A stretch of 50,126 nt of DNA from sequence record MZ501051, one strand, 5' to 3'. The notes beneath the pieces are model-generated. The model was not told the DNA's origin, ran no database searches, and saw nothing but the letters and a program-made list of their open reading frames with translations. Both the position numbers and the translations under genes were made by a program. Shown here in pieces: positions 7,616 through 45,434 of the stretch. The DNA is from Escherichia phage AugustePiccard. Within the stretch, counting starts at the first letter, position 1; every line of letters starts with the position of its first letter.

Positions 7616-9049
7616 ATGGCTAGCGAATTAAGAGCAGTAACCGCTGGGACTGCCCACGCCCTAAAGCAAAAAATCATGGAATACATTGCTGATGGTTGGC
7701 AGCCTTATGGAAGAATCCTTAACGCTGGAGCGACTAGCGTTGGTATCATCATGGCGAAAGGTACTACAGCAAGCATTAATGATGTTGATGTTATTACCGC
7801 AGATTCAAGGGCTTCTTTAGTTTCTAAGATTAACTCATCCATCGAAAATGGGTTTGAGATGTTCGGAGAGCAGGAAGTGAACGCAAGTAGATTTATCGCC
7901 TTCATGACTAAGGGTTCTCAAGGTTCATCTGGTGGCGGTGGAGAACCTGGACCAATTGGGCCTAAGGGTGAGAAGGGTGACAAGGGCGACAAGGGAGATG
8001 TTGGTGAGCGCGGACCCGCTGGCCTAGCTGGTGCGGCTGGCGCTACTGGTCCATCTGGCCCTCAAGGTTTAACTGGCCCCGCCGGCGCTAAAGGTGATAC
8101 TGGTGAGCAGGGACCAATGGGTCCAACTGGCGCTACTGGACCTAAAGGTGATACTGGCGAAACTGGTCCCGCCGGACCGCAGGGCCCAAGAGGATTGCAA
8201 GGTGAGCAGGGGGTTCCGGGCGAGGTTGGTCCTGCTGGATTGACATTCCAGGGCGCATGGGATTCTGCTGCGACATATGTGAAGGATGACACTGTAGTTT
8301 ATGATGGGTCTACTTGGTTTGCTCCAGATGCTGTAGCTGCTGGATTAGTCCCTGGAGTTGCTACTGAGTGGATTCTTTTAGCTGCGCAAGGCGCAAGGGG
8401 CGAGGATGGTCCGCAGGGTCCGGTTGGCCCTCAGGGTTTACAGGGTGCCACTGGCCCAGCGGGTCCTACTGGTGCTACTGGTGCTACAGGCCCGCAAGGC
8501 CCTAGAGGTATACAAGGTCAAACTGGCCCGGCAGGCCCAGCAGGTCCTCAGGGTGAGGCTGGTCCTCAGGGTATTCAGGGTCCGCAGGGTGTCGCTGGGC
8601 CTCAGGGATTAACTGGTCCTCAGGGTCCAAAAGGTGATAAAGGCGATGCTCCTTACACATTATTTAACTCGCAGAACGTTACATCAACATACATTGAAAT
8701 CCCTATTCCGCAAGTAACCAACACTGTACTTAGGGTTAGGCTTTCAGGTGCCAACTTTGAATATAGCGTTTTAAGCAAAGGCGGCGCCAATAGATATGTT
8801 GACTTTTACACATTCATCCCGTCATTAACTAGCTCAACGGGTAACATCTATACCGGAGGAACTACCTTGACACCAACTGGTAGCCTCTTTTTGGGTAACT
8901 CCCCCGTGGCTCTTGGATTGAGGGAGTTGACAATAACACTCAAGGAATGGGGCGACAGAACGCTAACTACAATAAAGGCGATACATCACGGCAGATCAGG
9001 TGACACAACAAGACCTTTGCAGATAACTATGTTTAGTAATAAGTATTAA
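7616..9049 (+). CDS. collagen-like (Gly-X-Y repeat) structural protein
   Basis: Two long Gly-X-Y tracts ([23 protein letters not shown]... and [20 protein letters not shown]...) between globular N- and C-terminal domains. Confidence 0.75.
7933..8643 (+). repeat. Gly-X-Y coding repeats (GGN-NNN-NNN periodicity)
   Basis: Repetitive GGT/GGC-CCN triplets inside the collagen-like gene. Confidence 0.7.
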
Positions 9050-25670: not shown

Positions 25671-26348
25671 TTATACCACCTTATTTTCGATTTGCATTAC
25701 GTTATTAACTGCCAGCATAACATTTCGATTCTGCTGCTGCGTTGTAACTACAAAAGACTCCATCTTAATCCGATCTAAATCTTTTTCCGCACCCTCTCGG
25801 GTTAATTGCATTACCCGGTCATGGTTATATTTTTCCAATTCCGTCAACCCCACCTTATCTTCAAGCTTCCAGCAGTACACCTGCATTTCACTATATATTT
25901 TAGAGTTTACAGCCATTTGGCCTTGCATGCTATGAATGTGGTTATCTTTCTCTTTAATGATTTTCTCGTAATGTGCCACGATGTTTAGATTTCCAACAGC
26001 TTCGATCTTTGACTCAAGTTCATGAAGCCTTCGGATTACTTTATGGCGAAGTGCGACGCTGTATCCGGTGATTAGCGTTTCGGTAAGTTCCTTGTTAAGC
26101 AAAATCTCTGATGTATAGCCACGAACGTCAGTAAGTACTTGATAATCATCATGACTCAAATCTGAGTCATCGTTATAATGTAACAATTCATCGATCATTT
26201 CTTGAGCGTCCCTCACGACGTTGCCATGTCGCTTTCCGGTTAATTCGGCAACTTCCTTTGTGCTCATCATTGCTTTTGGTTGTTCTTTGTACACTTTAAT
26301 ATTCATTTTCATCTCTCTTCTGTTTTTCATGACCCAAATCTGGATCAT
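25671..26348 (-). CDS. Rha-family phage regulatory protein (antirepressor-like)
   Basis: N-terminal block MSTKEVAELTGKRHGNVVRDAQEMI matches the Rha domain signature; coiled-coil C-terminus; start codon uncertain. Confidence 0.55.
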   Translation of the reverse strand: MIQIWVMKNRREMKMNIKVYKEQPKAMMSTKEVAELTGKRHGNVVRDAQEMIDELLHYNDDSDLSHDDYQVLTDVRGYTSEILLNKELTETLITGYSVALRHKVIRRLHELESKIEAVGNLNIVAHYEKIIKEKDNHIHSMQGQMAVNSKIYSEMQVYCWKLEDKVGLTELEKYNHDRVMQLTREGAEKDLDRIKMESFVVTTQQQNRNVMLAVNNVMQIENKVV

Positions 26349-26408
26349 GATTTGATGTTCGGCCTGAAATTCAGGTTGGATGACGACACCATTGCCGCCA
26401 TGCGCCTA

Positions 26409-26455
26409 AATATAACTAAAGATACCCAGTTGTCTTTAGCAATTAGTGCTATTTA
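26409..26455 (-). promoter_or_regulatory. box promoter for the Rha gene
   Basis: Minus strand: AAATAGCACTAATTGCTAAA, 22 nt, TATATT. Confidence 0.5.
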
Positions 26456-26576
26456 TCGCCAATTCCACCATAAATCACAGTTACACGTAACCGATGTAAC
26501 TCGATGTATACAATCTCGTCCGCGGAAAATGGTATACGCCCTGTTACGCCTGGTTACGCTATAGTTACATTAAAAT

Positions 26577-26624
26577 ATCTATATATATCAACCTTTTACT
26601 CTTATTATTATTATTATATATATT
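26577..26624. repeat. microsatellite (AT)n-(TTA)5-(TA)n in divergent region A
   Basis: atctatatatatatc...cttattattattattatatatatt. Confidence 0.8.
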
Positions 26625-26939
26625 ACTATGTATATCATGTAACTACTTCTATGGAGTGTTCCGGTTGTAATTTTAATATCATGTGGATTTATACAGTATC
26701 TAACAATCAGCATAGCAACGCACCCTCCTTGAAGAATGGTATACACGATATACACGCTGGTTACATTGAGCTATAGCTGGTCTGGGGTGCCAAAAAGCGT
26801 AACTAGTGGCAGTGCCTACACGGAATTACAAGGATTCACGCGTAAACTTAATAAATTGATAGGCACAAACGATATGACTTATCACCTCCTAGTGCATATA
26901 GTTATCTCATCGAAAGCAAACAACCAGAGAGATAAAGAA

Positions 26940-27134
26940 ATGACCTACTACATTATCAAAGAGAAAAACAACGCACTGTTCGGTGACTGCTACTTTGGTG
27001 GCCCTGCCGGATACACAACGGATAAGAACGAGGCTGACAGATTCGAGACTAAAGAAGAAGCCCGAGATGTGCTGACTGGTTACTTCACAGTAGAAGATAT
27101 GAAATCGGTTAAGGTTGTTGAGGTGAAGGAATAA
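26940..27134 (+). CDS. hypothetical small protein
   Basis: ATG preceded by the conserved leader (CATCGAAAGC...AGAGAGATAAAGAA); track ORF extends upstream without support. Confidence 0.45.
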   Translation: MTYYIIKEKNNALFGDCYFGGPAGYTTDKNEADRFETKEEARDVLTGYFTVEDMKSVKVVEVKE

Positions 27135-27137
27135 AAT

Positions 27138-28103
27138 ATGAGCTTTAAAGTTTTTACGCGAGAGGAACTAAGCAACGAGGCTTATCATAACGAGACTGAG
27201 CATATATCAGGCAGTTCAATTGTCGAGATTATCCAGGGCTCTCCGGCTAAGTGGAAGTTTAAACAGCGTAATAATGATAGCAAGGCTCTTAAGTTCGGAA
27301 CGCTGAGTCACACATACATCCTAGAGGGTGACGTGTTTGATAAAGAATACCTGAGAGCAACTGACCTTGACTCAATTGAAGGATTGATTACCAGCCAAAC
27401 CGGTTTGGCTGCGGCACTTAAGAAAGTTGGTGTGGCTGGCACGTCAGGGAAGGGGTATGGCGAGCTTGTAGAGATGATGTATCGCTCTGGTGAGGATTGG
27501 CCTGTTAAATGGCTAATTGAGCAGAAGGAGAGCGCTCAGGCGCTTGTGGAGGGTAAGGAGTTAGTTAGCGCAGCGGACTACGACAAAGTGGTGGCGATGC
27601 GTGAGGTTCTTTGCAATATTCCGGCATACGATAAGATTGTTAATAGTGAGACGGCGCAGAAGGAGTTATCAATCTTCGGTGAGATTCTAGGCGTTGGCGT
27701 TAAGATTCGAATCGACCATGTTGACGTTATTGATGGAGTCGTTCGGATCACAGACTATAAAACGACAGCGGACGCAAGCCCTGAGGGATTTGGCAAATCG
27801 GCATTCTCGCACGGGTACCTTGCAAAAATGTCGCTTCAGCGCGATCTGTTTGTGAAGGCATTCAACGAGAAGCGAAAGGTTGTTGTGGGATTGTTAGCAC
27901 AGGAGAAGGTAGAGCCATACTTACCAATGCTTTACACCTTGACGGACGAGCAGTTACGAATTGGTAGGTTGCAGTATCTTGAGGCGTTGGCCACTTATAA
28001 GAAGTGCAAGGAGCTAGATATCTGGCCGGGGTACTCGAATGGGATTACAGAGCAAGAGCTACTAGTTCCTGAGTGGGCACTGAAACAATACAAAGAAATA
28101 TAA
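27138..28103 (+). CDS. PD-(D/E)XK-family exonuclease (recombination exonuclease)
   Basis: Motif IDHVDVIDGVVRITDYKTT (D...D-x-K core); directly upstream of erf and ssb. Confidence 0.5.
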   Translation: MSFKVFTREELSNEAYHNETEHISGSSIVEIIQGSPAKWKFKQRNNDSKALKFGTLSHTYILEGDVFDKEYLRATDLDSIEGLITSQTGLAAALKKVGVAGTSGKGYGELVEMMYRSGEDWPVKWLIEQKESAQALVEGKELVSAADYDKVVAMREVLCNIPAYDKIVNSETAQKELSIFGEILGVGVKIRIDHVDVIDGVVRITDYKTTADASPEGFGKSAFSHGYLAKMSLQRDLFVKAFNEKRKVVVGLLAQEKVEPYLPMLYTLTDEQLRIGRLQYLEALATYKKCKELDIWPGYSNGITEQELLVPEWALKQYKEI

Positions 28104-29404: not shown

Positions 29405-31924
29405 TTACCCAGTTGCTCCAGTAACTATATTTTTCCATCCAGTCCCTGTCGCAAAAGCAATTAATCCAGTACCCGTACCAAACGATGCATTATTGTTAGT
29501 GCATGATTGATTTCCGGTGCGCTGGAGATTTGCAGCATCTACAGTTAAACCAAATCCATAGGCACGATAGTTGAAGCCACTTTTTGCATTTGATGGGATG
29601 AGCGAGTTACCATAGTTTATTGCACCGTAGATATCAACAATCCCTGCTGCGGTCGTTTCAATTGGATTTCCCGAAGTGGAAATAAGCGTTACGTTACTTG
29701 CCGTTACCATTCCTCCAGAATAAAACAGGGCAAGTTTTCCACTGTTCGCACCTGTAACATTACTCAGTATCACTCTTGGTGATGAGGCGTCTGCATTGGC
29801 AGCGAATTGCCTGAACAGATGGCCGTTAGAATAAACCATATCAGAAATGTTTATATTTTTTAACGTTCCTCCACGAATTTGGCAGAGTGTTGCCTCTGTT
29901 TTATGATCTACCGACCCTTTTATAGTTACGTTGTCAACAACACCTCTCGTAACCAGGCACAATGAACTGTACTGGTCACCACTTAACAAAGTATTTTTTG
30001 ACTTGATATTAACGTTAAGGATTCTTGACTTATCATTTCCAGATCCTTCACCACATGCGAATCCAAACTTAGAATTTCTTGGCGCATCCATGTCTAAGTT
30101 ATAGACTGTGACACCAACAGACCCCCTAACGTCAACAACAGGAGTTGATATATTAGTTAAGTTAGTGGATACGCCTTCCACTACCACTTGATCAGCAAAC
30201 ACCTCGCCCAGGCCACGGTCGTAAATTTCACACAGTGCATGGCCCGCTCCAGGAATAGCGGATATATCATCAAATATTGCATATTTAACCGTTGTTTTTG
30301 TTAGGTTATGATCAGCCCAAATTCTTACCGGAGCATGTTGGCAGGTGCCATGTATTCCCCGTACAGATACATGCTTAAACTCAACACCATCGTTACCTGC
30401 AAGCTTTACAGCACACAGAGTTGTGTCATTAAATAACCCTTCAACATCGATAAATGTGAAATTTCCTCGAGTCCCTAAGTCATATGATGCGTAATCTCCA
30501 CCGGTCATTGCGAATAAGTCGTCTCCGGTATGACCACGTAGATTCCTTACATACGCATGGTAGATGGGTGGTTGCAAGTGAAGACCATCAGAGTGATTGT
30601 CAAACTCAAGACCCTGAGCATCAAGGTAATCAATATTCGCTACAAGATAGGCATACTTGAACGCCCCACCAACTTTAAGTCCACCACCAAGTTTTAGCCT
30701 TTTAACACCAGCTATACAGATGGCATGGGTATTAAGCCCTCCTGGAGCAGTACCGGATTTGTTATAATTTATAATTCCACCACCACGAATTCCAAGATAA
30801 TCAGATTTTTTAGTCAGGTCCGAAGGGTTTGATATGGTATCAAACCAATACTCACTAATAAATAAAGGCATGTTTGTGCCTTCTACGTTTCTAATCTCTG
30901 TTCCTGCGTGAATCAATACATCCATATTGTTTTTTAGCAGTAAAGAACCATTTACCAACACAACTCCTTTGCAGTCAAAAACAAATTGAGAAATGAAAGA
31001 TTGTCCTCCTAGCGACGAAAATACCGAGTTAATCCTTGCAGTATTCTCTTCTGCCGTAGAAGATGGGGATACACCATAATCAGACATAAAATAAGTTTGC
31101 CCAACGCGCACATCCAAAGGCATAGGAACCCCAGGGCCATTTGGATTTGTGTATGTGACTAGTGACGAACCAGATCCAGAAGCTAAGTTAGCTCTTAATG
31201 ATGTATCACTAGCTCTAACCCATGCACCAGGACCAATACCACCAGATGATTCAGGAGTTGATCCAGCTGGAACAACCTTAGGTAACGTTCCTGACCAAAG
31301 GAACTGTACGGCATAACCATCAATGAATTGAATTATCACTTGGTTTTTTGACTGAAGAGTTACTCCATCATCAAAGTTACCAACCAGGGCTCCGGATACT
31401 GATTCAGCGGCACTCTGAGCGACGATTGCAGAATTGCTTGCAGATGACGCGGAACTAGAAGCTGAATCCTTGTCTGCTGATACCTGAGATGCATCAGATG
31501 ATACCTGAGAAGCAATAGTAACAATTTCTCCAAACTGTGTGTTAACTTGGTTTACATCAGTTGAGAATTTATCATGATCAAAATCCTTGAAAACATCAAC
31601 CGCCTCTGCAATCGCAGTTTCACGCGACTGATAGTGACGAAGTGTTTCCGCAACATCTTGAGCTAAACCCTGAACGGTAATTCCATCATGCGCAAGGATT
31701 GCGTAACCAGTACCAGCAGGAACGGTTTCAGAATTAGGGTTGTAAACATTAATCTGCGTATCGCTGATAATTTCTGAGATGGTGTAAATTTTTACTGGTT
31801 CAGTTTTGAAAACAATGGTAGCACCTACGCGAATCAGTGTAAGCGGTGCTTTCCATGTAGTTCCCACGCCGGTCACCTCGCCATTTGCGGATAACGACGC
31901 CGTTCCTAAGTCATAAATTGCCAT
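29405..31924 (-). CDS. tail fibre / tailspike-like protein
   Basis: About 840 aa; Ser-rich linker (SSDASQVSADKDSASSSASSASNS) and long Gly/Asn/Thr-rich body; start taken as MAIYDLGT (ATG 31924). Confidence 0.45.
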   Translation of the reverse strand: MAIYDLGTASLSANGEVTGVGTTWKAPLTLIRVGATIVFKTEPVKIYTISEIISDTQINVYNPNSETVPAGTGYAILAHDGITVQGLAQDVAETLRHYQSRETAIAEAVDVFKDFDHDKFSTDVNQVNTQFGEIVTIASQVSSDASQVSADKDSASSSASSASNSAIVAQSAAESVSGALVGNFDDGVTLQSKNQVIIQFIDGYAVQFLWSGTLPKVVPAGSTPESSGGIGPGAWVRASDTSLRANLASGSGSSLVTYTNPNGPGVPMPLDVRVGQTYFMSDYGVSPSSTAEENTARINSVFSSLGGQSFISQFVFDCKGVVLVNGSLLLKNNMDVLIHAGTEIRNVEGTNMPLFISEYWFDTISNPSDLTKKSDYLGIRGGGIINYNKSGTAPGGLNTHAICIAGVKRLKLGGGLKVGGAFKYAYLVANIDYLDAQGLEFDNHSDGLHLQPPIYHAYVRNLRGHTGDDLFAMTGGDYASYDLGTRGNFTFIDVEGLFNDTTLCAVKLAGNDGVEFKHVSVRGIHGTCQHAPVRIWADHNLTKTTVKYAIFDDISAIPGAGHALCEIYDRGLGEVFADQVVVEGVSTNLTNISTPVVDVRGSVGVTVYNLDMDAPRNSKFGFACGEGSGNDKSRILNVNIKSKNTLLSGDQYSSLCLVTRGVVDNVTIKGSVDHKTEATLCQIRGGTLKNINISDMVYSNGHLFRQFAANADASSPRVILSNVTGANSGKLALFYSGGMVTASNVTLISTSGNPIETTAAGIVDIYGAINYGNSLIPSNAKSGFNYRAYGFGLTVDAANLQRTGNQSCTNNNASFGTGTGLIAFATGTGWKNIVTGATG

Positions 31925-31988: not shown

Positions 31989-32012
31989 ATAAAAAAACCT
32001 CCCGAAGGAGGT
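31989..32012 (-). terminator. rho-independent terminator (minus strand)
   Basis: CCTCC-TTCG-GGAGG followed by T7 on the minus strand. Confidence 0.7.
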
Positions 32013-32935
32013 TAGTTTAGTAGTTCGCTTGCCTTATAGATTCTCTTTCTTATTCCTGACTTGAAAAAATTATCATCATTTGGCATTACCACATCAATAT
32101 TGCGATCGTCAGCAACGGCGAGTAAATCAAGATCGTGGCGAGTACAAGCGATGCGTAACTTGTATTTTCTAAGCGCGTAAGCAACCATTTCCATGTTGTA
32201 GATGGAGTAGCAAACAAGCACGCAGCGGTTGCCAGTAGCAATGTGAACACGATAGCCGTCAATGAGATTATCGACCAGATAAGCGTAATCATCATCCTTA
32301 AAGGAACCAATAACAGAAACAGATTGGCGAGTATAATCTTTTGCAGCATAACTAACACCTCCATATTCATTGATAAACATTACATTACACATTTCTTCTG
32401 ATATGCCGTCACTATAAGCCATAAAGCACGGCACTGCGTGTATTAGTTCGCCTGATTTTGTTCTGCCAACATCAAAGCCAAACTCGCTATAGATTCCCTC
32501 GTATGTACTGAGCGGAGTTGATTCTACTCTTTCAGTCCTTTCCATTATCTCTAAGCATCTTTCGTGGTCAATCTGAGCGCCCATTTTGTAGATCTGGGTT
32601 CTTGATGCTTGCTTGTTTGCTTTAACTATAACCTCAATTGGTGTTAAGTTCAGCCAGTCACCAAGCAAATTTACTGAATCGGCGAAGGACGATCCAGTGC
32701 ACTTCATGACCCATCCTATACCGGAGTCACTCCCGCATTTCGAACAAACTGCCGCGCCATTTCCTTTTTCACTGCCTATTTCGTCGGTAAATCTGAATCT
32801 GTCAGTGCCAAAGCAGTATGGGCATGGTCCGTGCTTCTTACTTAGGTGTCTATCATTCCAACCAAGTTCCTTTGCATAAAATGATTTCCACAATCCGGCC
32901 ATCTTAGGTATAACTTCATTCTTATCGTAATTCAT
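32012..32935 (-). CDS. DNA primase (zinc-ribbon type, putative)
   Basis: N-terminal zinc-ribbon HGPCPYCFGTDRFRF...CSKCG; position beside helicase and HNH. Confidence 0.5.
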   Translation of the reverse strand: MNYDKNEVIPKMAGLWKSFYAKELGWNDRHLSKKHGPCPYCFGTDRFRFTDEIGSEKGNGAAVCSKCGSDSGIGWVMKCTGSSFADSVNLLGDWLNLTPIEVIVKANKQASRTQIYKMGAQIDHERCLEIMERTERVESTPLSTYEGIYSEFGFDVGRTKSGELIHAVPCFMAYSDGISEEMCNVMFINEYGGVSYAAKDYTRQSVSVIGSFKDDDYAYLVDNLIDGYRVHIATGNRCVLVCYSIYNMEMVAYALRKYKLRIACTRHDLDLLAVADDRNIDVVMPNDDNFFKSGIRKRIYKASELLN

Positions 32936-33462: not shown

Positions 33463-33936
33463 TTAATCTTTAGCTTTTCGTGCTGCTTCGTTAGCTGCCT
33501 TAATCTTGCGCCACGATCGACACTCTGGCTTGGTGGCCAGTTCAGCCTCAGTTACCACACGCAGCATGTGACGTTTTTTGCAGCGTAGAGTTAGTGGTTT
33601 TCCGTTACCGTCGAATTGCAGGTCTGGTCTACAGAATGTGGCGCGAAAACCTTCTCCGGTTCGTTTGTAGTAGTTGTGCGACAGTTGAGCGCCACGTGCA
33701 GAAATCATACCACGCTTAAACCACTCTTCTACAGCCTGCGGCGTTACCTTTAACTGCTTTGCGATATTCGCCTTTGTGCCGAAGAAATCAAGAATCATCT
33801 CTAACCTTGCGCGTAACCCAGCCCTTACCTCATCTTTCAAAACGTAGTAACCTGAAGGTCGCTTTCGCTGCTTTTTATCTTCAGTGCGGATGGTTCCGTT
33901 ATTGCCGTTAATGGTTCGCTTGTCAATTGTACTCAT
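33463..33936 (-). CDS. HTH DNA-binding protein (putative transcriptional regulator)
   Basis: Helix-turn-helix-like segment TKANIAKQLKVTPQAVEEWFKRGMIS; basic protein; first gene of a leftward block. Confidence 0.5.
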   Translation of the reverse strand: MSTIDKRTINGNNGTIRTEDKKQRKRPSGYYVLKDEVRAGLRARLEMILDFFGTKANIAKQLKVTPQAVEEWFKRGMISARGAQLSHNYYKRTGEGFRATFCRPDLQFDGNGKPLTLRCKKRHMLRVVTEAELATKPECRSWRKIKAANEAARKAKD

Positions 33937-34037
33937 TTCATTACCTCGATAGCATTTTTTGTTAAAAGTCATTCTGATTTGATGGTAGTATTGTACTCAA
34001 TTAAACGCTACAAGACAATTTTTATAGGAATTTAGAT

Positions 34038-36032
34038 ATGTTGCCTATCGAGAAACTGGTTGCCAACTTTGATAAAGAAAGAATTAAACAGATTCAGAAA
34101 GACTATCAGTTTGGCGAGATAACCCCTTACGAGTTCCAGTGCGTCACATTTGATGCAATCGGAAAGGCCATTGGAAAGTACGAGGCACCATTTATCGCGG
34201 ACCTTTCCGTGTCTGCTGGTAAGACAATCATTCTGGCTATGATTGGTAAGCGCATGGAGCAGCTTGGGCTTCCTTATATGGTTCTCTCTCGCCAGTCAGA
34301 AATTATCAGTCAGAACTCAGAAGAGCTTCGTAATTTCGGTATCCGTAACAGCGTCTATTGCGCCGGCCTCAACGTTAAATCGGTTTACTACCCAACCATA
34401 GTTGCTAGCGAGGGTACGGCAGCTAACGGCTTGTTTAAGGGTCTTGGTGACTACGTTCCTGCTGTTATAGCTATTGATGAGTGTCATATGGTGGACCATA
34501 TGGATATCGTGGAAGCTGAAGAGAACGAAGAAACATTTGAGCAAATGAGCACAAAGAAAGGCGAGATGGTTTTCAAGGATGGTGTTAACACTGGATTGAT
34601 AGGCACAGGGCGAGCGCAGTACACACTAATTATCACTGAGATGAAACGTCGCTGCCGCGAGAAGTACGGTCGTGAGCTTCGTATATTCGGTCTAACTGGC
34701 AGCCCGTATCGTAACAACGATCATATCGTCGTTAGCAACCCAAACATCCGTGGATTTTGGCGCAAGACGGTTATTCAGGTTCCAACCAATTACCTGGTTG
34801 ATTTAGGTTTCGTTGTTCCCACAGTTTACGGTGAAGTTGGCGATCTGGGATATGACCTTGCGGAGTTTGCGCCGGATGGCAGTGATGGCGTGAAAGACTT
34901 TAGCAAGAAAGAAATGGAAGCGATGCAGGAAAAAATTCATCAAAACCAGTCCATGACTCAAAAGATTATGGGTTTTGTTGTAAAAATACTAGAGACTCGT
35001 AACGCCGCATTGGTAACGTGTGCTGGTAAACTTCACTGCGAAGAAGCTGCTGCAGCGCTACCAGATGGATACCCTTACGCCATCATCACAGACTCTACTG
35101 GTGAGAGGAAGCGCAGAGAGATTCTTGACGATTGCCAGACAGGGAAGTATAAAATAATATTCCAGATTGGTTGTCTAACTACGGGGGTGTCGGTTCCACC
35201 GTGGGATACAAGCGTTATACTTAGAAAGATCGGCAGCCTTACACTACTGATCCAGCTACTTGGTAGGGGTATGCGAATACTCAAGAAGAAACATAAAGAA
35301 CTTGGAATGGTTAAGGACGATCATTTGGTTCTTGATTTCGCTGGTGCGCTTGATGACATGGCGGAGCTTTACTTTGACCCAATTATTGAAGAGATTCAGG
35401 CTGAGAAGTTTAAATCATCAAGAAAAGGTGGCGATGAGGTTCGCCAGTGTCCGCAATGTGGTTATGAGAACTCTCCGTTCGCTCGCAGGTGTGGTAACAA
35501 GATTGATGGAAAGCGTTGTGAGCACTTTTTCAGCTTTACGGTTTGTGAAGATATTACTGACCCGCAAACAAAGGCTGTTATAAAGAAAGGCTGCGGTACT
35601 CGCAATGACATAGCAGCAAAGGTTTGCAGGGAATGCGGAGAGATGCTTAAAGACCCAAATGCTAACCTGACTGGCAAGATGTATCGTCGTGGTGATTACC
35701 TTCGTGTTTATGATTTTCAAGTTGGGTTAAGTAAGAATCAGACAGGCATTGTAGTTAAGTACAACATCATGGCGCATAACGGAGAGAGGTTTAATGCTTG
35801 GGAGTTCTTTAATCCAGAATCAGACCATAGAGTTTGCAGTGTGCTTTGGAAGAACTTCTGCCTTGCTCATATTGAGAATCGAACTGAGGCCGCGCGAATT
35901 GGAAGACTGAAGAATGCCAGAATGATTATGACTAACTTGGATAAGTTCCGTGCGCCAGTTCAGGTTACACACCGAAGGAATGGCAAAGGAAAGGACGTGA
36001 TCGCTTTTAAGAATTTTGGAGAATTGCTATGA
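34038..36032 (+). CDS. SF2 helicase (DEAD/DEAH-box) with C-terminal zinc-ribbon
   Basis: Walker A SVSAGKT, Walker B/DECH AIDECHMV, and Cys clusters CPQCG...C...C / CRECG. Confidence 0.8.
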   Translation: MLPIEKLVANFDKERIKQIQKDYQFGEITPYEFQCVTFDAIGKAIGKYEAPFIADLSVSAGKTIILAMIGKRMEQLGLPYMVLSRQSEIISQNSEELRNFGIRNSVYCAGLNVKSVYYPTIVASEGTAANGLFKGLGDYVPAVIAIDECHMVDHMDIVEAEENEETFEQMSTKKGEMVFKDGVNTGLIGTGRAQYTLIITEMKRRCREKYGRELRIFGLTGSPYRNNDHIVVSNPNIRGFWRKTVIQVPTNYLVDLGFVVPTVYGEVGDLGYDLAEFAPDGSDGVKDFSKKEMEAMQEKIHQNQSMTQKIMGFVVKILETRNAALVTCAGKLHCEEAAAALPDGYPYAIITDSTGERKRREILDDCQTGKYKIIFQIGCLTTGVSVPPWDTSVILRKIGSLTLLIQLLGRGMRILKKKHKELGMVKDDHLVLDFAGALDDMAELYFDPIIEEIQAEKFKSSRKGGDEVRQCPQCGYENSPFARRCGNKIDGKRCEHFFSFTVCEDITDPQTKAVIKKGCGTRNDIAAKVCRECGEMLKDPNANLTGKMYRRGDYLRVYDFQVGLSKNQTGIVVKYNIMAHNGERFNAWEFFNPESDHRVCSVLWKNFCLAHIENRTEAARIGRLKNARMIMTNLDKFRAPVQVTHRRNGKGKDVIAFKNFGELL

Positions 36033-36526: not shown

Positions 36527-36817
36527 ATGGCTACTATCTATACTGGTAAATTCTACGAATCACGCAAAACTGGTTATGAGTATGAATTAGTAATAACCCC
36601 AGAAGGTTATGTACTTGATGATGGTGAAGGGTACGCATTCGAAGTTAGCCCGACTTACAAAGATGATTTAGAAACTGTTAAAAACGCATTTGGCGAAAAA
36701 TTTGATGTTATTGATGATGGTGATGGCTACGCATTCGAAGTTAGCCCAACCTACAAAGATGATTTAGAAACTGTTAAAAACGCATTTGGCGAAAAAATTG
36801 ATGAGGTATCAGAGTAA
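36527..36817 (+). CDS. hypothetical small acidic protein with internal 32-aa tandem duplication
   Basis: Box promoter and leader; DDG(E/D)GYAFEVSPTYKDDLETVKNAFGEK occurs twice. Confidence 0.6.
   Translation: MATIYTGKFYESRKTGYEYELVITPEGYVLDDGEGYAFEVSPTYKDDLETVKNAFGEKFDVIDDGDGYAFEVSPTYKDDLETVKNAFGEKIDEVSE
36618..36809 (+). repeat. 96-bp tandem duplication (2 copies) inside ORF 36527..36817
   Basis: Two near-identical units starting gatgatggtga(a/t)gg(g/c)tacgcattcgaagttagccc... Confidence 0.75.
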
Positions 36818-41514: not shown

Positions 41515-43098
41515 TCACCCCAGCAGTCGTGGATTAATGTAAACTTTATCACCAATCAGGCATGTATAGTTTTTCTCATCTAACATCGGCAGCAAGTGGT
41601 CTTTAATCTTTGTCATCACTCCAGCCTGAGACTCGAACGGCTTAACCTTGCGCGCAGCCTCATACAATGAACGAATGCCAACTACGCCTTTCCCGTTCTT
41701 TCCTTGCTTGATAAGGATATCAATCAGCTTATTCATCTCGGCATTGTCGCCAGCGTGACCAGCGGCGTTAGCAGATGACAGATAAGTCTTGCTAAGCTCC
41801 TGGAACATGATTACAGCCTCTTGCATTGTGTCCAGTCCAATCTCTCTGGACTTCTGCGGGCTTCCGCCATTTGGGTTAAACCAGTTACGGACAGTGTGAA
41901 TAACTGCGGCAATCCTGATAGCCTGCTTATCGAACTTGCCCAGCGCGCCGCGCAACATAGTATGTGAATACTTACCGCCATCAGCAAGATGGGGCTCCAT
42001 TTCCTGACGTGCACGGTTGAGATATTTCATCGCTGAGTTACTCACTGTCAGCTTTACTTCCTGCTCGCTCATGATTTCGTGAACCAAGCGGAAGTAGTCA
42101 GCCTTCAGTCCGCTGTCAATTGGCTCGTATGTTGACTCTCCATTCTCATCAACGAATACACGTTCGCCCAGGAAGGACTTTTCACGCACAAGCAGAAAAC
42201 GCTCCGACACACCGATACCACGCGCACCAGCATTCATAATGGCGTTGATTGTTTCGTCCTGCGCAATTACCGAGATGCAACCCATAGCAACGAAACTCAT
42301 GTTGTTCTCTGCGTTCGCACGCGCGATAGATACGTTACCAGCATCCCATGCTTTAAGCACGAGTTCACTGTTTGTTTTCTTTGAGCCATCTCCATAGGTC
42401 ATGCCCAGAAGTGAGTTCACGCTCGTCGCCTCATCCGAGATTACTGCGAAGTTTCCCTGGCGGTTGTTTATTCGCGCAAGTCCCTCAGGCGTGGTGTCGG
42501 ATACGGGGAAAACGATATCGCATAGCTTCTCGAGTTTCTCCTCCAACTCCTCTTTCTCTTCAAAAAGTGAAGCCATCTCTGAAGGAGATTTTTCCTGCTT
42601 CATCTCTTTGGATAATGCAGATAGTTTGGCCATAATCTTTTTGCGCTCGCGTTTTCGCAATTCATTTAGTCGCTCAGTCTCGGCAATCATCGGGGCAATA
42701 GAAAGTGAGTTAATCGCTGATTTACCGGTCGATGGAGGTTGACTTGTAACTACGTAAAGAGATGTTGGCTGCTGCGTTCCGTGATACTCAACAGTAAAGC
42801 GGCCCAGCATAGCAGCGGAAATGCAACCCAAAAAGTGCATATAAGCTGAAGACTCCGGGAACTGAACAGAACGAGCAATGTTGGCTGACAGTCTACCAAC
42901 AACGTCAACATCATTTCCGAGCGAGATTACAGGATACTTGTCATTGGCCGCATCAATCTCGACCGGTGCTTTCCAGAATGACTGAGACTGGCGATAGCCA
43001 TTAGCATTGATAGCCACGCGCAGGGGTGGGAGGTTTTCTGCGGCAGCTATTGCCATAACTTGTTCAACAGATAGTTTATCTTCGTTGAAATCAAACAT
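41515..43098 (-). CDS. large hypothetical protein with deviant P-loop (replication-associated?)
   Basis: 527 aa; P-loop-like PPSTGKS; N- and C-terminal segments paralogous to ORF 45945..46469; RBS GGAGAG. Confidence 0.55.
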   Translation of the reverse strand: MFDFNEDKLSVEQVMAIAAAENLPPLRVAINANGYRQSQSFWKAPVEIDAANDKYPVISLGNDVDVVGRLSANIARSVQFPESSAYMHFLGCISAAMLGRFTVEYHGTQQPTSLYVVTSQPPSTGKSAINSLSIAPMIAETERLNELRKRERKKIMAKLSALSKEMKQEKSPSEMASLFEEKEELEEKLEKLCDIVFPVSDTTPEGLARINNRQGNFAVISDEATSVNSLLGMTYGDGSKKTNSELVLKAWDAGNVSIARANAENNMSFVAMGCISVIAQDETINAIMNAGARGIGVSERFLLVREKSFLGERVFVDENGESTYEPIDSGLKADYFRLVHEIMSEQEVKLTVSNSAMKYLNRARQEMEPHLADGGKYSHTMLRGALGKFDKQAIRIAAVIHTVRNWFNPNGGSPQKSREIGLDTMQEAVIMFQELSKTYLSSANAAGHAGDNAEMNKLIDILIKQGKNGKGVVGIRSLYEAARKVKPFESQAGVMTKIKDHLLPMLDEKNYTCLIGDKVYINPRLLG

Positions 43099-44823: not shown

Positions 44824-44870
44824 ACTATACCCTCAACAGCCGCGCTTGTCTTTAGCAAAAAGTGCTATTC
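44824..44870 (-). promoter_or_regulatory. box promoter for the leftward small-gene block
   Basis: Minus strand: GAATAGCACTTTTTGCTAAAG, about 23 nt, TATAGT, leader CATCAACAACGAGGG. Confidence 0.55.
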
Positions 44871-44895
44871 GTTAGATTTATGGATTGTTGCGGAT

Positions 44896-44939
44896 ATTGC
44901 AATGATTCCCATGATTATTGCACATATAGCAATATTGCT
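44896..44939. promoter_or_regulatory. cluster of short palindromes (ATTGCAAT, AGCAATATTGCT) in divergent region B
   Basis: Perfect palindromes sharing the TTGC/GCAA half-site with the promoter box. Confidence 0.4.
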
Positions 44940-45150
44940 TCAGATGCAATGATGTTTTTGATTGTTGCGAAATGAGCAATAAAGTAGTGAGTGAGTGAAT
45001 GAAAGATGGATGGACTACCATACAAGTTGATTTTGATTCTGCTAATCCATTTTCACGCTTACACGTAACGCCCGTAGCGCGATGTAAGCCAACGCCTATC
45101 GTTACGCGAGTTACGCGCAGCTACGCCTAGACTTACACTATAAGTGCCTA

Positions 45151-45200
45151 ATATATATATATATCTTCTTTCTATTATTATTATTATTATTATTATTATT
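45151..45200. repeat. microsatellite (AT)7 ... (ATT)9 in divergent region B
   Basis: atatatatatatat then (att) x9. Confidence 0.85.
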
Positions 45201-45405
45201 GTATGTAAGTCATGTAACGGGGTTTCCGGCGATATCTATATGTTTTTTCCTATCAGTTATAGCCTTGGCTATAATTTAAGGTATGGAGTGGGTGTTTTGG
45301 GGCCATTTGCCTCGTTACACGCACGACACGCCACTTACATTAAGCTATAGCTGGGCTAGCATACCATTTCGCGTAACGACCCCCAAAAGTTACCAAAAAT
45401 TACAC

Positions 45406-45434
45406 TTGACTACATGTGTAAGTCGGGATATGAT
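45406..45434 (+). promoter_or_regulatory. canonical sigma70-like promoter (TTGACT-17-TATGAT)
   Basis: TTGACT 45406-45411, 17-nt spacer, TATGAT 45429-45434, then leader AAACGAGAGGAG. Confidence 0.5.

Follow-up and report, generated by a model that had tools for sequence, protein, structure and literature searches.

Paired iteron-flanked AT-rich modules as candidate replication origins in a T1-like phage and its relatives in the family Drexlerviridae

The genome of Escherichia phage AugustePiccard (sequence record MZ501051) was analyzed over its full length of 50,126 bp; this window is the complete genome of a T1-like siphophage of the family Drexlerviridae. We focused on the region 26349-26939, which lies between a leftward Rha-domain gene and the rightward recombination operon and has no conserved open reading frame (ORF) inside, in agreement with an original prediction, made from the sequence alone, that it is non-coding. 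Its core, designated module A (26477-26860), was found to be duplicated at 45055-45420, a feature that this prediction had missed, and the paralogue, module B, preserves the order, orientation and spacing of the parts of module A. Both consist of short repeats (iterons) arranged around an AT-rich tract. On balance, we lean towards the view that modules A and B are paired candidate replication origins (oriA and oriB) or origin-like assembly sites for an MCM-like helicase.

Clusters of GTAAC/GTTAC and ACACG repeats had been noticed in the original prediction, and their counts exceed the genomic background: nine copies of GTAAC/GTTAC occur in the 591 bp of the region versus 2.9 per kb genome-wide (Poisson P=8e-5), and four copies of ACACG versus 0.54 per kb (P=3e-4). 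What had not been recognized is that these repeats belong to one motif family. A single motif, nTTAC(R)(Y) (variants GTATAC and CTAC), covers both and is present in ~15 copies per module versus 5.7 per kb genome-wide (P ~3e-9 and 9e-9). The left array of module A is an imperfect palindrome in which four rightward sites, 10-11 bp apart, are aimed into the AT tract; facing this array from within the AT core are two inverted sites, <26628 and <26637 (> and < denote rightward and leftward sites). The same plan is seen in both modules: from the left, four sites 9-12 bp apart aim into the tract, and from the right, two aim back. Distances of 9, 102 and 37 bp are identical in A and B, the second being that from <26637 to >26739 in A and from <45212 to >45314 in B, and the third that from >26760 to <26797 and from >45334 to <45371, respectively; the ~90-bp spacer sequence is unrelated. 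In addition, the 20-mer TTACATTRAGCTATAGCTGG is found in the genome only at 26761 and 45335. The block TTACATTGAGCTATAGCTGG (26761-26780) and the perfect palindrome AGCTATAGCT (26769-26778), both described previously, are exact.

The AT tracts themselves stand out in the genome. The microsatellite reported earlier in module A was confirmed as (TA)4.5 at 26580-26588, (TTA)5 at 26602-26616 and (TA)3.5 at 26617-26623, and Tandem Repeats Finder detected two AT-only trinucleotide arrays genome-wide, the one in module A and the other at 45173-45200. When duplex stability was calculated from nearest-neighbor energies, the tracts of the modules were the two least stable 60-bp segments of the genome (z=5.5 for B and 5.2 for A; the next segment had 3.4). 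The two least stable positions in phages ZL19, Sf12, T1 and KLPN1 were likewise upstream of recE and at the early-arm junction, and in phage TLS the AT tract of the module was the least stable within the 11 kb examined (z=4.9).

Ten module A orthologues (from Rtpvirus, Guelphvirus, Loudonvirus, Nouzillyvirus and unclassified Braunvirinae) were then aligned, as were eight of module B. Repeat numbers of the AT core were constant in the 10 module A orthologues, which represent at least four named genera, and in the 8 module B orthologues, with rare point substitutions only. In nine orthologues the AT core was 96-99% identical to that of the window; for the flanks the figure was 69-91%, and for the recE DNA of these phages 77-86%. 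The right iteron cluster of module A was kept in the orthologues, and outside the core 78-79% of motif columns were invariant versus 37-40% of spacer columns (Mann-Whitney P ~1e-9). Judged from these alignments, purifying selection acts on the iteron sites and on the AT core. Because repeat numbers are fixed and the core is 96-99% identical, the microsatellite is constrained rather than hypervariable, and the earlier expectation that its simple-sequence repeats might vary in length did not hold. Copy number, whose comparison had been suggested as a check, differed only between paralogues or deep lineages, with (TTA)5 in A, (TTA)9 in B of the window and (TTA)7 or (TTA)4 in B modules of other phages. 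AT richness alone does not account for the exact conservation of the (TA)n-(TTA)n sequence, which implies that something sequence-specific is read there; the initiator may recognize the core as a single strand, primers may start in it, or it may have a promoter embedded. We also observed B cores near-identical to the A core (ATCTATATATATCAACCTTTTACT...) in three loci of vB_EcoS-type and IME542-type phages (L032, L039 and L041), with (TTA)7 instead of (TTA)5. The A-like cores in some B modules suggest gene conversion between modules A and B.

The module is not restricted to the window and its close relatives. T1 has both copies, one upstream of recE at 29851-30377 and the other across the record ends, their (TA)-rich tracts being surrounded by TGTAACAG/GTTACA and ATTACGC/CGATTAACA sites. 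In TLS, whose genome was described as being without iteron-like repeats (PMC11447400), a module with TGTTC/GAACA sites is located between tspJ and recE. ATCTTAC occurs 19 times in the genome of Klebsiella phage KLPN1, with 11 of these copies in the ~360 bp upstream of recE (33761-34119), and one inverted ATCTTAC pair flanks the second AT tract of this phage. For a wider survey, alignment queries were used to fetch from IMG/VR the surroundings of the helicase gene (80 loci) and of recE (80 loci). An AT tract with z>=4 was present upstream of recE in 63 of 76 loci and upstream of the helicase gene in 41 of 80, at least some of the remainder being cut by contig ends or having it beyond the 4.5-kb flank. 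The iterons differed by lineage: TTACGC-type in the window, ATCTTAC in KLPN1, GGGACAAA in L072/L155, TTTGCGGTAGAT in L075 and G(A)AACA (GAAACA, GAACA) in TLS, egaa, L065 and L066. In every example inspected they aimed inward at the AT tract, which in many lineages included an (ATT)3-5 run. As far as can be read from these sequences, a module with lineage-specific iterons is present in all T1-like phages examined.

We compared A and B in 24 contigs with both modules, which were dereplicated to 12 lineages, using the overlap of non-AT 7-mers as a score. In 10 of the 12 lineages, A and B of one contig overlapped more than the cross-lineage mean, and in 7 the same-contig pair was the single best match (binomial P=1.5e-5). 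In the GGGACAAA lineage, the same-contig score was 106 versus a maximum of 22 for any other lineage. Paralogous non-coding modules that switch their repeat together would be explained by one shared trans-acting reader, and the concerted evolution of A and B thus points to such a reader encoded by the phage.

Two further elements were found near the AT tract. The motif TGTTCCGC(G) occurred 70-116 bp right of the AT center in 19 of 26 dereplicated B modules (IMG/VR loci L032-L111), independently of lineage, and on the corresponding side of both modules the window has TTCCGG (26660-26665 and 45223-45228). A related CCGCG(G/C)AAAA element is located left of the tract at 26519-26530 and likewise in KLPN1, egaa and ESP2949-1. 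Unlike the iterons, this kind of element is constant across lineages and may bind a conserved phage or host factor.

A candidate for the reader is the DUF3987 helicase. Previous studies proposed that DUF3987 proteins are SF6 (MCM-related) replicative helicases that carry a winged helix-turn-helix (HTH) domain at the C-terminus (PMC4889955) and showed that one member is a helicase that binds its primase (PMC11724360). We built an AlphaFold model of the protein from an alignment of 34 homologues, which had a predicted local distance difference test score (pLDDT) of 89 and a predicted template modeling score of 0.86; a single-sequence run gave a pLDDT of 38. The model has a C-terminal winged-helix topology (H-b-H-H-b-b, residues 451-521), and each of its top 50 fold matches in PDB was an MCM subunit, at probability 1.0 and with E-values as low as 6e-6. 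Sequence searches against PDB, with the single sequence and with a profile, found nothing, and the MCM assignment comes from fold comparison only. Among the 34 homologues, mean pairwise identity was 35-43% in the winged-helix domain, 37% in the N-terminus and 54-63% in the ATPase core. The low conservation of the winged helix fits, but does not prove, a role as a specificity domain. Loci with an identical helicase C-terminus have GTTTC-type iterons in common.

These data suggest a possible order of events. The DUF3987 MCM-like helicase would bind the iterons via its C-terminal winged-helix domain and assemble, in opposed orientations, to the left and right of the AT tract. It would then melt the tract, aided by the negative supercoiling that arises as the flanking promoters fire outward, and bending by integration host factor (IHF) may contribute in module A. 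Having loaded itself for bidirectional unwinding, the helicase would be followed by the separate zinc-ribbon primase and the host polymerase. The recE-erf-ssb operon beside module A may later shift early theta-type replication to recombination-driven concatemer synthesis. A more specific version may also be considered, in which Drexlerviridae have two equivalent concerted origins, the helicase loads itself head-to-head on convergent iterons and the core, more than being easily melted, offers the AAA+ initiator a single-strand recognition element with a trinucleotide register, like the bacterial DnaA-trio. Such an element would explain why the length and sequence of the core are fixed within a lineage while iterons swap between lineages, although we consider this version as a whole improbable.

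The nearest known system is the origin of Staphylococcus aureus pathogenicity islands (SaPIs), in which 6-12 penta- or hexanucleotide iterons surround a central AT-rich region, with at least two iterons per side in opposite directions; a self-loading SF3/SF6 Rep helicase, which works with a primase, reads them through its C-terminal winged helix (PMC9371898). The phage modules similarly have short iterons (5-8 bp) on both sides of an AT-rich center, at least two per side and opposed. The same arrangement with other iterons was found in L072/L155, L066/L129, L065/L158, KLPN1 and TLS. Lineage-specific iteron sequence is a further likeness, as is an encoded helicase of the SF3/SF6 (MCM-like) type with a C-terminal winged helix (predicted here), along with a primase. 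There are also differences. The phage has two copies per genome, each with ~15 sites rather than 6-12, including an outer cluster 102 bp away; its AT tract is sequence-invariant and carries trinucleotide repeats; and the modules are carried by a virulent siphophage in which iteron binding is a prediction.

Other phage origins offer partial parallels. The ori and crr of phage P4 contain octamer iterons bound by the alpha primase-helicase, and oriL and oriR of SPP1 contain G38P boxes adjoining AT-rich DNA. Like the modules, these are pairs of separated cis elements with the same short repeats, one phage initiator and an adjoining AT-rich segment, and the T1 primase is annotated as P4-alpha-like. 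However, their iteron sequences and proteins are unrelated to those discussed here, and ori and the enhancer-like crr of P4 are not equivalent, whereas modules A and B are near-equivalent paralogues. Iterons adjoining an AT-rich unwinding region, and a possible IHF site in module A, are also reminiscent of lambda and oriC. An oriC-type origin is nevertheless not indicated, as the modules lack a DnaA-box cluster: four DnaA boxes (TTWTNCACA) were found in the genome and none in either module, GATC sites numbered zero in both and Fis-consensus sites were absent from both. The strict IHF consensus had five matches genome-wide, two of them in region A and none in module B. The lambda origin has about four iterons of 18-20 bp (19-mers) inside the initiator gene, whereas the modules are intergenic with 6-8 bp repeats, and the scan of the replication genes turned up no O-like gene. 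Cumulative GC skew tracked gene orientation and did not discriminate an origin.

It should be noted, however, that several observations weigh against an origin function. A simple unwinding element would not require 96-99% sequence identity. The fold matches of the helicase to MCM, though uniform, have low TM-scores (0.31-0.36), probably as a result of a differing domain arrangement. Co-variation of the winged helix with iteron type, which showed no contradiction, is inseparable from phylogeny and was not counted as evidence. The SaPI origin is directly downstream of rep, whereas the phage modules are ~2 kb (B, whose start at 45055 is upstream of the helicase gene) and ~15 kb (A) from the helicase. 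Two origins in a 50-kb genome would be unusual, though this has been reported for SPP1 (oriL/oriR) and P4 (ori/crr). Finally, the module is always upstream of an operon and flanked by promoters, which would also allow the iterons to be operators of a phage regulator (for example, the Cro-like HTH protein) and the AT tract to consist of UP elements or promoters.

The original prediction had left the choice between a replication origin and an early-promoter hub. Its origin-like reading is now strengthened by a melting extreme, footprinted motifs and a family-wide duplicated module, with origin function itself still conditional, and the hub still stands as the main alternative. According to the latter, the iterons are operators of a phage factor (Cro-like HTH or Rha-type), the AT tract consists of UP elements or sigma-70 promoters, and the module times the flanking early operons with no direct role in replication; we regard this as rather unlikely. 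Both modules do lie between outward-facing promoters, on the left a box promoter that reads leftward and on the right a sigma-70-like one that reads rightward. Promoter annotations of phage CEB_EC3a in phiSITE fall within the AT tract, and the core of module A holds TTTACT-18-TATATT as well as several minus-strand candidates. Near-perfect conservation is typical of strong early promoters, GTTACA resembles a -35 hexamer, and in one lineage an iteron overlaps the box-promoter position. However, a scan for sigma-70 -35/-10 pairs gave 5 matches versus 3.4 and 3.2 in shuffled sequence, which is no enrichment, although the flanking promoters are conserved. The TTTACT...TATAT spacing is not kept across all variants, being 18 with (TTA)5 in A and 24 with (TTA)7 in B modules of other phages, and B of the window has (TTA)9. 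In KLPN1 and TLS the left neighbor is co-directional, and divergent transcription is therefore not required. Moreover, known operators need less than what is seen here, where ~15 sites converge on the least stable DNA of the genome and the 102- and 37-bp spacings are conserved. The two readings are also compatible, as the origins of T4 and T7 contain promoters.

Packaging was considered as well, the module being part of the pac recognition or cleavage region or a mark of the genome end; the hints concern module B only. Nucleotide 1 of T1, the left end of its annotated terminal repeat, is ~200 bp left of the AT tract of T1 module B, several GenBank records begin at the left edge of module B, and a conserved GATTGTTGC/ATTGCA cluster adjoins it. 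Module A, however, has the same anatomy ~30 kb from the left end of T1, upstream of recE, the ATTGC cluster at the T1 end is outside module B and absent from module A, and T1 has a single pac site; we find a packaging role of the module very improbable. The idea of a hypervariable contingency locus or a structured non-coding RNA gene draws on the (TA)n/(TTA)n runs and small palindromes and on nothing else, and is effectively refuted by the invariant repeat numbers in the 10 and 8 orthologues and by the RNA tests. Scans of both modules against Rfam (Rfam 15), at gathering and permissive thresholds, gave nothing better than E=3.9. Folding energies did not exceed those of shuffled sequences (z of +1.28 for the rightward RNA, -1.00 for the leftward RNA and +0.10 for single-stranded DNA), and a structured or small RNA was thus rejected.

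The DNA just left of module B deserves a separate comment. At 44880-45012 it has ATTGCA/GATTGTTGC-type repeats (the ATTGC-type cluster, 44880-44990) followed by a (GTGA)n-like run, and GATTGT/TGTTGC hexamers occur ~200 bp left of the AT center in 14-16 of 26 dereplicated module B loci. The annotated left end of T1 falls within the equivalent ATTGC-type cluster. The 44880-45012 cluster is a candidate pac or terminase-binding region.

Coordinates of the modules, their flanks and relevant genes are listed in Table 1.

Table 1. Features of modules A and B, flanking elements and genes in the window (> and <, sites pointing rightward and leftward)
Feature	Position	Strand	Details
Left iteron array, module A	26480-26570		>26480 <26485 <26494 <26504, CCGCGG 26520-26525, >26532 >26543 >26553 >26564
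AT-rich core, module A (candidate DNA unwinding element)	26566-26645		(TA)4.5, (TTA)5, (TA)3.5, IHF-consensus match, two inverted sites
IHF-consensus match TATCAACCTTTTA	26586-26598		In AT core; invariant in all 10 module A orthologues
Spacer, module A	26646-26738		Left half conserved among module A orthologues; TTCCGG at 26660-26665
Right iteron cluster, module A	26739-26846		>26739 >26748 >26760, 20-mer 26761-26780, <26797 >26815 <26840
Rightward promoter region and leader of recombination operon	26849-26939	plus	
Second IHF-consensus match	26849-26861	minus	Beside rightward promoter
Rightward promoter, module A	26874-26902	plus	ATGACT 26874-26879, 17 bp, TATAGT 26897-26902
Ribosome-binding site	5' of ATG at 26940	plus	Leader of recombination operon
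Box ATAGCACTAATTGCTAAA	26435-26452	minus	0 mismatches to 21-nt repeat; overlaps AAGACA
Leftward sigma-70-like promoter, Rha arm	26436-26409	minus	-35-like AAGACA 26436-26431, 16 bp, -10 TATATT 26414-26409
Module B sites, left	45058-45132		>45058 <45063 <45082, then >45101 >45110 >45120 >45132
Module B AT tract	45140-45202		(TA)n and (TAT/TTA)9 at 45173-45200
Module B sites, right	45203-45399		<45203 <45212, 102 bp, >45314 >45334, 20-mer 45335-45354, 37 bp, <45371 >45399
Module B rightward promoter	45406-45434		TTGACT-17-TATGAT
Rha-domain gene	25671-26348	minus	Pfam PF09669
First true gene of rightward operon (64 aa, function not assigned)	26940-27134	plus	Full-length match to phrog_5247
recE	27138-28103	plus	Next after 64-aa gene; then erf, ssb
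DNA primase, zinc-ribbon type (presumed helicase partner)	32012-32935	minus	Pfam PF08273, phrog_510
Cro-like HTH protein	33463-33972		Pfam scan of replication genes
SNF2-type helicase	34038-36032		Pfam scan of replication genes
DUF3987 helicase (candidate initiator/replicative helicase, predicted iteron reader)	41515-43098	minus	Pfam PF13148, E=2.8e-41

The leftward box promoter proposed earlier was confirmed as a minus-strand copy (26435-26452) of the dispersed box ATAGCACNNNTTGNTAAA, and the same box and promoter are found left of module B (44824-44868). This box is present in 21 copies in the window versus 0.56 expected (for example, at 2713, 17841, 28104, 36445, 46466 and 48606) and is nearly always oriented with transcription. 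It corresponds to the dispersed 21-nt repeat aaATAGCACnnnTTGnTAAAA that has been described from TLS, T1 and Rtp (PMC11447400). The copy at 26435-26452, upstream of a gene and oriented with transcription, is a member of this repeat family and marks only the left edge of the module. That report describes neither the iterons nor the AT tract nor the duplication, which are distinct from the repeat (PMC11447400). On the other side, the -10 element TATAGT of the rightward promoter of module A is kept in 8 of 10 orthologues.

The nearest GenBank relatives of the window are ZL19, Rao1, BEK2/3, IME253, CEB_EC3a and Rtp, with ~84-87% identity over the query region. The gene left of module A differs among relatives and the right neighbor (small ORF and recE) is constant. 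Because the left neighbor varies, the Rha gene is outside the unit. Among the loci L003, L011, L026 and L192, this position was occupied by Rha/KilA, a Dcm-like methyltransferase, the cor lipoprotein, a primase or a tail protein, and it is a hotspot of gene exchange. A 132-aa ORF starting at 26736, annotated in Rtp (rtp46) and CEB_EC3a (Ec3a_41), was rejected, as its start codon and frame are lost in orthologues; it is probably a spurious annotation. This annotation (26736-26939) stretches the real 64-aa gene upstream over the right iteron cluster, only the C-terminal 64 aa being a real family, and phrog_35664 was seemingly built on the over-long version.

Several features elsewhere in the window may be mentioned. 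It has one tRNA-Arg and no further Rfam match. An HNH endonuclease gene (PF13392, 32932-33411) is located between the primase and the Cro-like regulator, a position at which ZL19 and similar relatives are without it, and looks like a homing-endonuclease insertion into the replication module. The ORF at 36527-36817 includes a 96-bp tandem duplication (36615-36803; 2.0 copies, 94% match, Tandem Repeats Finder score 343). In a structural region, the 477-aa ORF at 7616-9049 contains periodic repeats of 9, 18 and 36 bp at 7964-8626 (units such as GGTCCTCAG and GGTGCTACT), which would encode collagen-like Gly-X-Y.

The re-annotation of TLS looked for an origin and found none (PMC11447400), and none was found in the genome paper of phage SU57. 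Our searches of the available literature found no usable mapping of the T1 origin, replication intermediates or transcription-start data for Drexlerviridae, and no description of the modules. Origins built of iterons and an unwinding element are already known; what is unusual is the twin concerted copies and the fixed trinucleotide-repeat core in T1-like phages. T1 belongs to the classical set of seven T phages; phages of its type commonly contaminate laboratories and fermenters and are studied for phage therapy. With two precise candidate origin sites, a candidate initiator and a recognition code that changes by lineage, the origin question in T1-like phages becomes directly testable. If the modules are indeed origins, the mechanism of a self-loading MCM-like helicase with short iterons, as in SaPIs, would extend to a large family of virulent phages. 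Lineage-specific origin/initiator pairs would then be useful parts, and the modules would serve as CRISPR targets for decontamination and as sites to avoid in phage engineering. They would also provide a natural case of two origins evolving in concert within one genome.

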